A stretch of DNA of 61,853 bases, counting the filler, from Hausera hauseri (lineage: Eukaryota), in NCBI GenBank assembly GCA_046269625.1. It is 11 parts of 11 records of this genome, joined end to end, with 100 filler letters (N's around TTAATTAATTAA, not from the genome) between each part and the next. Parts side by side here need not be neighbours in the genome. Positions count along the whole stretch, not along the records: positions 29,230 to 35,782 come from JBJURY010087876.1; 10 more parts are not named here. One strand, given 5' to 3'. The notes below the pieces were generated by a model, which worked only from the letters and a program-made list of their open reading frames with translations, had not been told where the DNA came from and made no database searches. Position 1 is the first letter of the stretch. Every line of letters starts with the position of its first letter. A program made the translations under genes and the position numbers. Shown here one piece after another: positions 29,230-35,882 of this stretch.

Positions 29230-30160
29230 TGGGCCAGTTCATATCCGATACCTTCCTTGCTGGCGTCTGTTTTGATTATGAACGGTAGGTTGAAGTCAGG
29301 ATCTTAGAACGGGTTCACAAGTTAGAATTGTCTTCATTTCATCAAAATCCTTTTGTTCGACATCGGTCCATTTCCATTTGATCCCGTTTTTCAATGAACG
29401 ATATATAGGTGCGTTTATCTTCGCATTGTCTGGAACGTAAGTAGCATAATACCCACACAACCTTAACCAGTGTCTTAATTCCTTCTGATTCAGAGGTTCC
29501 ATGCAATCAGATATCTTACTTAATAATGATTTATCCGGCTTCGATTCTCCTTCTCCAACTATATGTCCGAGGTACGACACAGCATTCTGAGCCCATTTGC
29601 ACTTCTTGGGATTCAGTTTCAGTCCAGCCTGCTCTAGTCTCATAATTGTACCCTCGATATTTTTTAGATGGTCCTCTTCCGTTTTCGACGTGATCATGAC
29701 GTTGTCTAAGTAGGCAAACGCGTGTTCCATTCCCATTAGCATTTTATTCATCATACGAGTAAAACTGGCGGGTCCGGTAGTTATCACAAATGGCATAATA
29801 TTAAATTCGTATATACCATCGTGTGTCTTAAATGCCGTTTTGTAACGATCTTCCTCCTCTATCTTTACTTGCCAGTATCCAGATTGTAAATCGAGCGTGG
29901 TGAACCATTTTACTCCAGAGAGTCTGTCCAAAGCTTCCTTTATCGATGGTAACGGGAAGGAGTCCTTTAGCATAAACATGTTTAACGCTCGATAGTCAAT
30001 GCAAAATCGGTGCTTAGTGGTACCCTTTTCTTAACCATGAGTATTGGTGAATACCAAAATCTGTAGCTTGGTCTAATTATGTCGGCCCTTAACATTCTTT
30101 CAACCTGTTTGGTTATCTCTGGTCTTATTGAGTGTGGAGGAGGATACCATTTCGGCATCT
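29230..30160 (-). pseudogene. pol: Gypsy-type reverse transcriptase and start of RNase H
   Basis: HRFCIDYRALN, DSFPLP, FTTLDLQSGYWQ, KTAF, YEFNIMPF, YLDN (degenerate YxDD), LNPKKC, YLGH, PFIIKTDAS. Confidence 0.95.
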
Positions 30161-30615
30161 TTTAATTCTCAAGATCTGTTTCCTCGTTGGAACCAGGCTT
30201 TTTCTTAAGCGGAATCGCGAGTCCTAGGGCTCTGGATCGGCCAATATCTTCTTCGTTTTTCGCGATAATTGAGCTGTAGCGGCAAAGTAATTCGTAAAAT
30301 CAACAATATGATTCCGGTGAAAATTTAGTCTCAACATGGGGTGAAATTCAGCATTCTTATAAGGTTTTTCTTAGATGGAAATTGCTGATACTCTATACGT
30401 GTGTCCTAAAGTGGTATTGGCGTACAGTTTGATCGGAGGTGGTGCGTTATTCGCTATTCTGATTGGCACGTGGCCCGTTGATATTCTTGTCAAAACGTTA
30501 CTGAGCACAATGTTTGGATTAAGCGATTTTTTCGGCTTAAAATATACTGGCTGATGGTTATCCTGACGTATTTGGGCATATATGAGTACTTCCGTTCTCG
30601 GCGGTATAGTTTCGT

Positions 30616-31956
30616 CTACTGGAATCCACACTTCTCCATATTTTCGGTCTTTAGTGATTTAACTCCTTTTATTAGGCCAAGTGCTATCAACTTGCCGGCA
30701 TTGAAATCGATTGCTATATTAAGTAGTTGTCTCAATAAATCACACCTTAACACTACATTGTCCGTTAATTGCTCCATTACTGAGAATTCAAGACGAAAAT
30801 ATTGTCCCATTAGGTGAATTTCTGGTTTCCAACGGAATTTACTTTTCGACGACTGTCCGAAAGCTTTAATGCTTCCTGGGTTTGTCGTGGGGAGTGGGTA
30901 TAATTGCTTCCGTAGGAATTGTGGTATCGAGTCATATTTTATCAGTGATATTTCAGATCCTGTATCTACTAGTGCGTAAACTTCCCAATCGTCCAACTGC
31001 ATCTTTGCGAAGGGCCTGCCTTCGATTACCGTACCGTAATAACTTGGTGATATTTTGGGGTGTCGTACCGTGGGCACCTTGTAGCCGTTTATGGTGACTT
31101 CAGTGGTTCCAACTGGCTGGTCGATTAATTGTCTTAACTCTCCAATTGGGTATAGTTCGTTATTTGTGCTATTCGCATTTTCTGTCCCCTGATTTTTAAC
31201 TGGTGGATGAACATCTTGGTTTCTAAGGTGATGTGTTTCACGGCTTCCGATAAACATTGACTGCCTTTCGTTTAGTCTAGGTACTCTAGGTGAGTAAATT
31301 ATACCGTGATCATCGACTGCTGAGTGACGAGGTGGGACAGAAGGTTTTTCTGTTTCGTGGATCTTACGCAATATCCCATAGCGTTTTGTTCCTTCGTAAG
31401 GATCCTCTAGGCTAAATGTCTTCCGATAAACGTCTGTCTGATATGAGCTCATCGATCGTTTTTCGCAATCTTTATATATGGATGCCGTTGGCAGCAATAT
31501 CGGTAATGGTAATTTTGTAATAGAATAACTTTTGTGTCTACTCGGCCTGGAGATGACGTCTCCTCCCTTAGCCTCGTCATCATCAGAATTATTTCGTTGC
31601 GCCTTACTGTCTATGGATTTTTGCCTCCAATCGAATATACGTCTTTTGGATTTTCGGTTATAATAGCCGACATGTCGCTCTACATCTGCTTTCCATTTAC
31701 TCTCTTCACAAGCCTTTACGAATTTGCCGAAAGGAGTAATAATAGCCGTTAAAATCTTACACGAAAATCCTGTCAAGGTGAATATCTCGTATCCATTTAT
31801 AACCGCATGAATTATCGCTTTGATCAGTTGGATCAAAAAATAGATTGCTAGGAATCCTGACTCGGCTTGCCCAAATATCAGGAATCTTCCCAAATTTTGT
31901 GCAATGTTTCTCTGGTTACTTTCTTGTAATAGCCGACACCAAGCAATGATTCCCAT
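30616..31956 (-). CDS. Single open frame joining the Env membrane anchor and cytoplasmic tail to the retropepsin protease
   Basis: N-terminal FLIFGQAESGFLAIYFLIQLIKAIIHAVINGYEIF; C-terminal RPF..ALVDTGSEISLI..VVLRCDLL; no stop in between. Confidence 0.88.
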   Translation of the reverse strand: MGIIAWCRLLQESNQRNIAQNLGRFLIFGQAESGFLAIYFLIQLIKAIIHAVINGYEIFTLTGFSCKILTAIITPFGKFVKACEESKWKADVERHVGYYNRKSKRRIFDWRQKSIDSKAQRNNSDDDEAKGGDVISRPSRHKSYSITKLPLPILLPTASIYKDCEKRSMSSYQTDVYRKTFSLEDPYEGTKRYGILRKIHETEKPSVPPRHSAVDDHGIIYSPRVPRLNERQSMFIGSRETHHLRNQDVHPPVKNQGTENANSTNNELYPIGELRQLIDQPVGTTEVTINGYKVPTVRHPKISPSYYGTVIEGRPFAKMQLDDWEVYALVDTGSEISLIKYDSIPQFLRKQLYPLPTTNPGSIKAFGQSSKSKFRWKPEIHLMGQYFRLEFSVMEQLTDNVVLRCDLLRQLLNIAIDFNAGKLIALGLIKGVKSLKTENMEKCGFQ

Positions 31957-34952: not shown

Positions 34953-34965
34953 CGAACATAATTCT

Positions 34966-35775
34966 TCAGCCGGAATTTCTTAATTCAGAAGTGACATCTC
35001 TTTGCCACCTTTGCACGAATTGCGACTTATCGGCCTCTTCTGCTTCTGTAATGGTGTATTTGTTTTTATAGACCTCGAGTTCTCTAACTAATTCGTTTAA
35101 TCTCATCGCTCTCTGTTTGGTCTTAATGCAAGTTTCTTCGACTTGCTGTATCTGCTGCAACAGCTGTCTTAATTTCTCGTCACTAATTTCTGCCATTTCC
35201 GCCTTCAAGAGCGCTAATTCATACATCTCGTTAATACTTTTTGAATCTGGATCTATCGCATCTAATAGTTTTTTTACAAATTTGATCTCTTTGAAGCTAA
35301 GGTGGTGGTCAGTCTTTATTTTAATCAGTTCGGTATGATACCTCTGATCAGTTCCGTCTACCCACTCTTGTGGCTTGTTTAAGAACTTCACTGTTTCTTC
35401 AACGATTGACCAATATTTGGTACAAAAGTCCAAGGTTTTAAGATCTCGGATTGAGATTTCCTTGATAGATTTAGCTGGCAAATAGCGTTTTCCTTTCATG
35501 CGAACATCCCTCAATCTCGGGTAGAAATCGCAAGTCGCATTTCGCTTCCGTACGAAGTTTGTTTCTTCAATCATCTTATATATATCATCTAGTATCGTCA
35601 ATACTTGTTTTTTCTCCATAAAGTCCAATTGGCGTAATGCCTCGAATTGGGTTCGGATGTCAATTTCTGTCCTCATTGTATTTAGATTTCGGGCGTCTTC
35701 CTCTAATCGCTTCTTTACTGTAGGCTGGCTCTCAGGAAATTTGTTCTTCCGACTGTTTATTAATTCACTCAACAT
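34966..35775 (-). CDS. Charged, coiled-coil-like polyprotein segment upstream of the UBL region
   Basis: 269 open codons, E/K/L/Q-rich; no specific motif. Confidence 0.5.
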   Translation of the reverse strand: MLSELINSRKNKFPESQPTVKKRLEEDARNLNTMRTEIDIRTQFEALRQLDFMEKKQVLTILDDIYKMIEETNFVRKRNATCDFYPRLRDVRMKGKRYLPAKSIKEISIRDLKTLDFCTKYWSIVEETVKFLNKPQEWVDGTDQRYHTELIKIKTDHHLSFKEIKFVKKLLDAIDPDSKSINEMYELALLKAEMAEISDEKLRQLLQQIQQVEETCIKTKQRAMRLNELVRELEVYKNKYTITEAEEADKSQFVQRWQRDVTSELRNSG

Positions 35776-35882
35776 TGTTATTNNNNNNNNNNNNNNNNNN
35801 NNNNNNNNNNNNNNNNNNNNNNNNNNTTAATTAATTAANNNNNNNNNNNNNNNNNNNNNNNNNNNNNNNNNNNNNNNNNNNN

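Follow-up and report, generated by a model that had tools for sequence, protein, structure and literature searches.

The Burro/GYPSM1 elements of planarians are giant gypsy-like LTR retrotransposons, for which the part of their description used here (Arkhipova and Yushenova 2019, PMC6431247) gives a length of more than 30 kb and an ORF of 4,873 aa. The polyprotein combines Gag and CCHC, a Ubi2/SUMO-like domain, an in-frame Env resembling mononegavirus fusion glycoproteins, protease (PR), a spacer, reverse transcriptase (RT), RNase H (RH), and integrase (IN); Smc, MATH, BIR, ankyrin, and BCL2-like motifs are also described. Ty3/gypsy errantiviruses with GAG-ENV-POL order and an HSV/gB-type envelope are known from Nematoda, Bryozoa, and Platyhelminthes, according to the excerpts at hand of Chary and Hayashi (eLife 2026, PMC13524379), in which nematode endogenous retroviruses (Sacco et al. 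2022) are cited for a flipped ENV/POL order. A captured chuvirus-type glycoprotein has been reported, in the sections covered here, for the mosquito Anakin elements (Dezordi et al. 2020, PMC7642597); these belong to BEL/Pao, whereas the Pol of the elements analyzed here is of the Ty3/gypsy type.

The window (i.e. the whole 61,853-nt stretch of Hausera hauseri DNA that was analyzed) is made up of short contigs with N spacers in between. The element occurs in three copies (A, B, and C), each on a contig of its own, and the Env family PF24664 was detected in each copy. All three are dead and, as originally noted, none is complete within the window. Copy B (29230-35782, minus strand) most probably stems from a Ty3/gypsy LTR retrotransposon with a gB-type env between gag and protease, whose intact form likely encoded a single Gag-UBL-Env-Pol polyprotein threaded through the ER. 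This copy carries the join between Env and protease, and its features are the following:

34969-35781, minus strand: helical/coiled-coil ORF upstream of the ubiquitin-like domain (UBL); capsid and CCHC off the contig
34248-34640, minus strand: three-helix domain followed by a ubiquitin/SUMO-like beta-grasp domain (relatives-only HMM, PDB profiles, AF2/Foldseek)
33570-34247, minus strand: linker and helical region, downstream of the UBL and ahead of the Env signal segment; its counterpart in Burro is Bcl-2-like
31723-33531, minus strand: class III (chuvirus G/gB-type) Env, extending from the signal segment to the anchor over three frame segments, with three in-frame stops (PF24664, Env profile)
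31024-31722, minus strand: stop-free linker from Env anchor to protease, predicted to be cytosolic (ORF and stop counts)
30709-31023, minus strand: aspartyl protease with DTG motif (RVP; quick tree)
30031-30658, minus strand: PR-RT spacer and RT N-terminus, with frame changes inside; homologous to relatives, in the place of Burro's dUTPase-like region
29244-30030, minus strand: Ty3/gypsy-type RT and first RNase H residues, then contig end (profile; relatives)

In this copy, ORF 32007-30619 (minus strand) unites the C-terminus of PF24664 with RVP in one frame without a stop. In Pfam profile searches, residues 26-98 correspond to PF24664 positions 529-601 (E = 1.5e-11) and residues 329-427 to RVP (E = 4.8e-5). 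Across the Env-protease linker of 777 nt (~260 codons), the shared frame has no stop, against 13 and 23 in the remaining frames, and not one of 20000 base shuffles of the linker retained an open frame. RT follows at 30030-29299 (E = 1.1e-31, profile search), although the contig ends ~19 residues into RNase H. The claim that the membrane anchor runs into the protease without a stop, with RT and RNase H downstream, was thus borne out, for RNase H by its start only. Copy B Env covers positions 14-626 of the 635-position Env profile. Signs of decay comprise about seven frame changes and several stops; the RT active-site motif is degenerate. A quick tree grouped the protease with those that precede RT in relatives; in an RT tree of 13 rows, copy B sat on a long branch within no supported (starred) group. 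No Pfam match was found for the PR-RT spacer, nor any significant match of the helical/coiled-coil ORF 34969-35781 to relatives.

Relatives were defined as public proteins with E ≤ 0.001, which yielded 10 among 5015 candidates, and were compared at the protein level. Each of these ten is one stop-free protein of 2296-4029 aa. PF24664 lies upstream of the protease in all ten; RT, RNase H, and integrase are present as well in nine, the helix and UBL module in eight, and a CCHC knuckle, on one chain with Env, in seven. Fourteen cysteine columns of Env are conserved. Identity to copy B is only 24-47%. The Pol of P0003 found Ty3 Gag-Pol as its best PDB match (E = 4.9e-119). Fragments P0001 and P0007 also carry the anchor-protease join, which brings the independent proteins with this join to 12. 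P0002 was discarded as a false match to a WD40 protein. Two of eight matches in one search, P0004 and P0006, consist of an Env tail that no protease follows, i.e. the Env family also occurs unfused. Searches for related loci in metagenome contigs, viral contigs, and prokaryote genomes found none, Rfam gave no matches, and a word-based search with the join ORF returned none of 2655 longer candidate proteins, which is weak evidence. A LINE of the window had 128 matches. The sequencing runs listed for the locus comprised one, at a share of 0.34, and no RNA run. Its contigs, 11,819 aligned to copy B and 12,969 to copy A, covered 30/30 bins of each copy, in short pieces that bridged no junction informatively, and were left out of the structural argument.

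Ten relatives place Env ahead of the protease within a single uninterrupted protein, which marks the Env-PR join as ancestral and not as the product of a nested insertion. Support for Gag-UBL-Env-PR-RT-RH-IN as the single-frame order of the predicted intact element comes mainly from the intact relatives, with which copy B is collinear from the start of Env to RNase H. For copy B, full-length continuity is borrowed from these relatives, since its contig contains neither capsid nor CCHC nor integrase and only the start of RNase H, and since its frame changes so often. The Pol order of Ty3/gypsy is seen as PR, RT, and the start of RH in copy B and as complete PR-RT-RH-IN in 9/10 relatives. Similarly, the position of Env between Gag and Pol is composed of Env before PR in copy B, Gag before Env in copy C, and all three in 7/10 relatives.

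The UBL was confirmed, in copy B by profile and fold and in copies A and C by the relatives-only profile. For copy B, the helix and UBL module scored E = 2.3e-10 with the relatives-only HMM; the UBL matched PDB profiles, and its AF2 model (pLDDT 79) gave Foldseek matches to SUMO, UBX, and ubiquitin. A single-sequence fold of the region was poor (pLDDT 52), and the ubiquitin/SUMO clusters of the ESM Atlas (0.84-0.86) are a lead only. Given its internal position and the lack of a terminal Gly-Gly, the domain is probably a binding module and not a conjugated modifier. Between UBL and Env, a Bcl-2-like domain found no support from Pfam or PDB, and a two-sequence profile gave no significant match. 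A putative BH2-like motif, picked out by eye, occurs near 16090 in copy A, at 41763-41737 in copy C, and in P0017, whose stretch from UBL to signal spans ~735-885.

Copy A comprises the following features:

15127-15507, plus strand: helical domain and UBL (relatives-only HMM, E = 1.7e-6)
16219-18090, plus strand: Env, extending from the signal segment to the anchor over four frame segments, with three stops (PF24664, Env profile)
18091-18360, plus strand: Env tail with YP and PSAP motifs (sequence)

Its hydrophobic segment corresponds to residues 112-130 of ORF 15901-16506. The signal peptide had been described as internal to an ORF in frame with the region upstream. This is correct as far as position and frame are concerned; however, two stops separate the signal-bearing ORF from the upstream ORF of the same frame, and frame-changing indels between A and C near 15843, 15928, and 15960 weaken the claim further. 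For copy C, the features are:

45448-45704, minus strand: candidate 5′ LTR (243 bp, TGT...ACA) and tRNA-His primer binding site (PBS) at 45459
43320-45134, minus strand: capsid and CCHC, split by a foreign LTR-like insert (Gag profile)
42351-42734, minus strand: helical domain and UBL with one in-frame stop (relatives-only HMM, E = 6e-4)
40663-41619, minus strand: N-terminal half of Env with two stops (PF24664, Env profile)

All elements said to precede Env in copy C, from LTR and PBS to capsid, CCHC, and UBL, were found, with the LTR (45704-45462) as a candidate, for which no second LTR to pair with it was detected on any contig. Capsid, CCHC, and UBL share one frame that is interrupted by in-frame stops. 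The PBS exactly complements the tRNA-His 12-mer in the portion used of supplementary file 1 of PMC13524379. The distance from PBS to the start of Env is only ~3.8 kb, including a 1.1-kb foreign insert. We also noted a feature absent from the earlier account: the capsid is split by an LTR-like insert of 1,126 bp (45055-43930) with a 5-bp target duplication, bordered on either side by Gag profile positions 34-59 and 58-159, and Env is truncated at 40659 by a second foreign sequence of the same LTR family.

As had been stated, the Env-PR join was seen in copy B only, given that no protease was detected behind copy A Env up to the contig end at 19108 and that copy C is cut inside Env. The A/C subfamily could accordingly be a Pol-less Gag-UBL-Env derivative, or unrelated to the Pol of copy B, so that the three copies would not represent one type of element. 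This reading is unlikely, but it is the best of the alternatives: the tail of copy A diverges after ~18360, and A and C share 72% DNA identity with each other but only 24-54% identity with B, in short protein blocks. Against it, the intact relatives that match B also align with A and C across Gag, UBL, and Env; the truncation needs no cause beyond nested insertions and contig ends; and the join in copy B is left untouched. The argument that two divergent subfamilies share one layout holds for UBL and Env, which are common to A/C and B, but does not reach the protease.

With regard to the polyprotein itself, Env was assigned to class III by family (Pfam PF24664 and PMC13524379), and its topology was derived from Kyte-Doolittle hydrophobicity scans and general membrane biology. 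The relatives have one hydrophobic segment before Env and another after it; in copy B, the signal segment scored below the scan threshold. A second, weaker hydrophobic stretch follows the Env anchor. On this basis, Gag-UBL would be made in the cytosol, and the hydrophobic segment ~20 residues before the start of Env would serve as an internal signal, to be cut by signal peptidase. The ectodomain of ~540 residues and 14 cysteines would form a class III trimer in the ER lumen. A single anchor would bring the chain back to the cytosol, leaving PR-RT-RH-IN hanging from the Env tail on the Gag side. Membrane clustering might then dimerize the protease and free the enzymes, and Pol would be packaged via membrane tethering instead of a Gag-Pol frameshift. 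ER threading with 1:1:1 synthesis would be a reasonable prediction.

Alternatively, the gene order could be the same while splicing, readthrough, or frameshifting parts Gag from Env-Pol, or Env from Pol, and synthesis would not be 1:1:1. P0010, P0011, and P0013 (3/10 relatives) start downstream of Gag without CCHC, the available text of PMC13524379 describes three ORFs and allows ENV-POL gaps of up to 2000 nt, and in copy A stops interrupt the stretch from UBL to Env, which no protease follows. We consider separate expression improbable nonetheless, as CCHC and Env share one protein in seven relatives, Env and protease are joined in all ten, and only the shared frame is open across the copy B linker. 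That the copy B join arose by accident, through a gypsy pol inserted behind, or juxtaposed by deletion to, a separate env gene, is largely refuted: nested LTR-like insertions do occur in the family (copy C) and copy B is rich in indels, but the linker is open solely in the shared frame, no LTR-like repeat of the window maps to it, and the 12 independent proteins carry the same join; an origin by nested insertion was rejected.

The single-polyprotein reading places these elements close to systems already described. As in Burro, an in-frame Env lies between Gag and Pol, seen here as Env-PR in copy B and as the whole chain in relatives, while decay has interrupted the run from Gag to Env in the window; a SUMO-like domain upstream of Env is shared as well. 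Compared by description, the giant size of Burro is not matched, copy C being compact from PBS to Env and the relatives comparatively short, and no MATH, BIR, or ankyrin Pfam matches were found in the relatives. The elements thus work like Burro without being classed as Burro. With the gB-type errantiviruses they share, in the excerpts of PMC13524379, a Ty3/gypsy Pol and a gB/chuvirus-type Env placed before Pol. The accessible main text of that study has no match for 'ubiquitin', 'fused', 'single ORF', or 'polyprotein', and none of its 23 His_GUG element rows, in the part used, comes from Nematoda, Bryozoa, or Platyhelminthes. The novelty implied by the original prediction is not supported, given the in-frame Env and SUMO-like domain of Burro (PMC6431247) and the gB-type GAG-ENV-POL elements of three phyla (PMC13524379), as far as these sources were covered.

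The layout is real but of a known kind, published for flatworm, nematode, and bryozoan elements. The nematode endogenous retroviruses reportedly have a continuous gag-env-pro-pol ORF, and flaviviruses likewise build their envelope into a polyprotein. The copies add to a small group of retroelements that obtain their envelope from the polyprotein and need neither splicing nor an env gene of its own. Decayed copies cannot tell how the ratio of Gag:Env:Pol is adjusted in these elements or how Pol is packaged. Some relatives bear two to four aspartyl protease domains, for which a literature search on such elements gave no match, and eight of the nine integrase-bearing relatives have a second signal-to-anchor membrane protein behind integrase, located at ~2255-2560 in P0003. 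It is conceivable, though rather doubtful, that the copies and the ten relatives form an undescribed compact enveloped gypsy lineage, possibly in a host phylum from which Gag-Env-Pol elements have not been reported, with a polyprotein that would cross the ER twice, two to four separate proteases, and a conserved three-helix and UBL module before Env. In comparison with the known systems, what is new is the compact version, in which the UBL-Env-protease layout of the giant Burro also exists, together with relatives whose multiple proteases and second membrane protein point to unstudied extras.

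A stop-free junction between an envelope glycoprotein (Env) and a retroviral protease was found in copy B, one of three decayed elements in the window, which consists of short contigs strung together with N spacers:

29230-35782, minus strand: copy B, one entire contig
32007-30619, minus strand: join ORF of copy B, running from the Env C-terminus into the protease

Within the join ORF, Pfam assigned residues 26-98 to the C-terminus of a Monjiviricetes fusion glycoprotein (PF24664) and residues 329-427 to a retroviral protease (PR). The 777-nt linker between them contained no stops in the join frame, compared with 13 and 23 in the other two, and an open frame was obtained in 0 of 20000 base shuffles of the linker. 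Reverse transcriptase (RT) follows downstream; after 19 residues of RNase H (RH) the contig breaks off. The original prediction of an uninterrupted run from the glycoprotein anchor into the protease, with RT behind it, was thus borne out. Copy B is dead, because seven frame changes were detected between the ubiquitin-like (UBL) domain and RNase H (tblastn against relatives) and the first half of its Env has three stops. One protease is visible in copy B, whose contig is cut before the post-integrase region.

With the join ORF as query, a full HMMER scan yielded eight matches. Three of these proteins (P0001, P0003, and P0007) carry both the Env anchor and the protease, two (P0004 and P0006) have Env tails with no protease behind, two comprise protease or Pol only, and one was false. 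P0003 is a chain of 2627 aa with the order CCHC, Env, PR, RT, RH, and integrase (IN); its record lists it as hypothetical and assigns it to a Flavobacteriaceae MAG; most likely it is animal DNA that was binned there. A second search, using P0003 residues 150-1190 as query, retained 10 proteins from 5015 candidates. Env lies upstream of a protease within one predicted protein in all ten relatives; the chain runs on through RT, RNase H, and integrase in nine, and includes the CCHC knuckle in seven. Copy B is collinear with them from the start of Env to RNase H (24-33% identity in the ectodomain, 38-47% in RT). Since all ten share the join and copy B is collinear with them, these sequences indicate that the join is ancestral and argue against a chance nested insertion. 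The relatives' ectodomains span 537-542 residues (eight measured) with 14 cysteines, and a pattern search of them found no furin site. Pol is of the Ty3/gypsy type, the best PDB match of P0003 being Ty3 Gag-Pol; in an RT tree of 13 rows, the branch of copy B is long and lacks support.

A profile derived solely from seven relatives (three helices plus the following 75 residues) recovered the UBL module in copies B (E 2.3e-10), A (E 1.7e-6), and C (E 6e-4), and also matched an eighth relative. The 10-row alignment A1 matched ISG15, ubiquitin, ubiquilin, and NEDD8 in the PDB. AlphaFold2 with A1 modeled the copy B stretch as a beta-grasp fold (pLDDT 79). Foldseek gave 118 matches to this model at E<=0.001, and it superposed SUMO, UBX, and ubiquitin with an rmsd close to 2 Å. 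The profile in all three copies and the model in copy B confirm the claimed UBL ahead of Env. The module is internal to the chain, and a Gly-Gly end is absent from the alignment. Second UBL copies were seen in the relatives P0013 (2935-3022, C-terminal, behind a protease domain), P0015 (527-664), and P0017 (432-501). Between UBL and the Env signal, copies A (16087-16113, plus strand) and C (41763-41737, minus strand) have a candidate BH2-like motif, at the position of the BCL2-like domain of the planarian element Burro. Pfam and PDB searches gave no support for a BCL2-like domain in that stretch.

The remaining two copies lie on other contigs:

14947-19108, plus strand: copy A
40161-45945, minus strand: copy C
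43930-45055: foreign LTR-like insertion into copy C
40568-40659: foreign LTR-like insertion into copy C

The signal peptide of copy A had been described as internal to an ORF; a signal-like segment is indeed internal, but two stops lie ahead of it, and frame-changing indels set copies A and C apart there. Downstream of Env, copy A showed no detectable protease. In copy C, an LTR candidate, a tRNA-His primer binding site (PBS), capsid, CCHC, and UBL all precede Env, as claimed. A foreign LTR-like sequence of 1,126 bp interrupts its capsid; of the two insertions, this is the one that has a 5-bp target duplication. The match to a Gag profile from six relatives ends at position 59 before the insert and restarts at 58 after it. 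Both insertions are of one foreign LTR-like sequence, whose end resembles 51721-51828, the 3' LTR region of an env-less gypsy element (46046-52229). The tRNA-His PBS may be new; it is not listed for Nematoda, Bryozoa, or Platyhelminthes in the available supplementary rows of PMC13524379.

One ORF would place Gag-UBL in the cytosol, the internal signal would direct Env into the ER, and a single anchor would bring the chain back, so that PR-RT-RH-IN stays on the Env tail, on the same side as Gag assembly. Clustering would then activate the protease and release the enzymes. Hydrophobicity scans agree with a signal-then-anchor topology, with a weaker second hydrophobic stretch behind the anchor and the copy B signal segment below the scan threshold; ER threading, with the Env tail bearing Pol, is what we infer. 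Equal synthesis of the parts need not mean equal particle numbers. Env is probably a class III fusogen, judging from its Pfam family and from the structural similarity of this glycoprotein type to herpesvirus gB given in the available text of PMC13524379. YP motifs occur in the Env tails of copies A (18285-18360, plus strand) and B (~31150, minus strand) and in 8/11 relatives' tails, and PSAP in that of copy A (18285-18360, plus strand) and 1/11 relatives' tails; both are possible ESCRT late domain candidates.

Two further features, seen in relatives only, may be new. First, eight of the ten (set P0009-P0016, P0017) contain 2-4 domains of aspartyl-protease-like type, each with a D[TS]G motif. 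These follow the Env tail, precede RT, and in many cases also follow integrase; in a quick tree the extra proteases group separately from most pre-RT proteases. A literature search found no report of multiple protease domains in such elements. Second, in 8/9 integrase-bearing relatives the C-terminal part consists of another signal-like segment, a stretch of ~120-430 residues, and then a strong membrane anchor (P0003 ~2255-2560 and equivalents). This region, which has no Pfam match, is possibly a second surface protein carried by the polyprotein.

Repeats neighboring copies A-C are animal-type. Elsewhere in the window, 20163-23757 (plus strand) encodes a stop-free LINE ORF2 of 1198 aa whose relatives have endonuclease, RT, and RNase H (best match 45% identical). 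By eye, three decayed gene copies in 1-9692 and 35883-40060 resemble a Polinton-type protein-primed DNA polymerase (first two 77% identical). A long TTCG/TTTC microsatellite array occupies 23858-29129, with an internal duplication (period about 3.4 kb) carrying identical ORFs. Decayed gypsy pol (56552-58327) is flanked by a 3.3-kb direct repeat (52330-55610 and 58578-61853, 86% identity), which could be a pair of very long LTRs or a duplication that the element inserted into.

The nematode elements of Sacco and colleagues reportedly have a continuous ORF. According to PMC6431247, planarian Burro is a single ORF that encodes Gag, a Ubi2/SUMO-like domain and a BCL2-like motif, Env (matching fusion glycoproteins of mononegaviruses), and PR with a dUTPase-like spacer and RT; the paper calls it the first in-frame env between gag and pol. 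PMC13524379 describes several clades of GAG-ENV-POL elements with gB-type Env from Nematoda, Bryozoa, and Platyhelminthes, citing Sacco et al. 2022 for the nematode ones. Anakin is a BEL/Pao element (available text of PMC7642597), and the accessible parts of PMC10084718 and PMC12440569 add nothing on Gag-Env-Pol order. The observation behind the original prediction stands, and its Gag-UBL-Env-PR-RT-RH-IN architecture is supported; its implied novelty is low, the kind being already published in PMC6431247 and PMC13524379. The element is a decayed addition to this published Gag-Env-Pol kind, and the copies show the features tested for the GAG-ENV-POL group of PMC13524379. It works like Burro but is not classed as Burro: its copies are not giant, and a BCL2-like domain is at most a possible feature of them. 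This compact form may be new.
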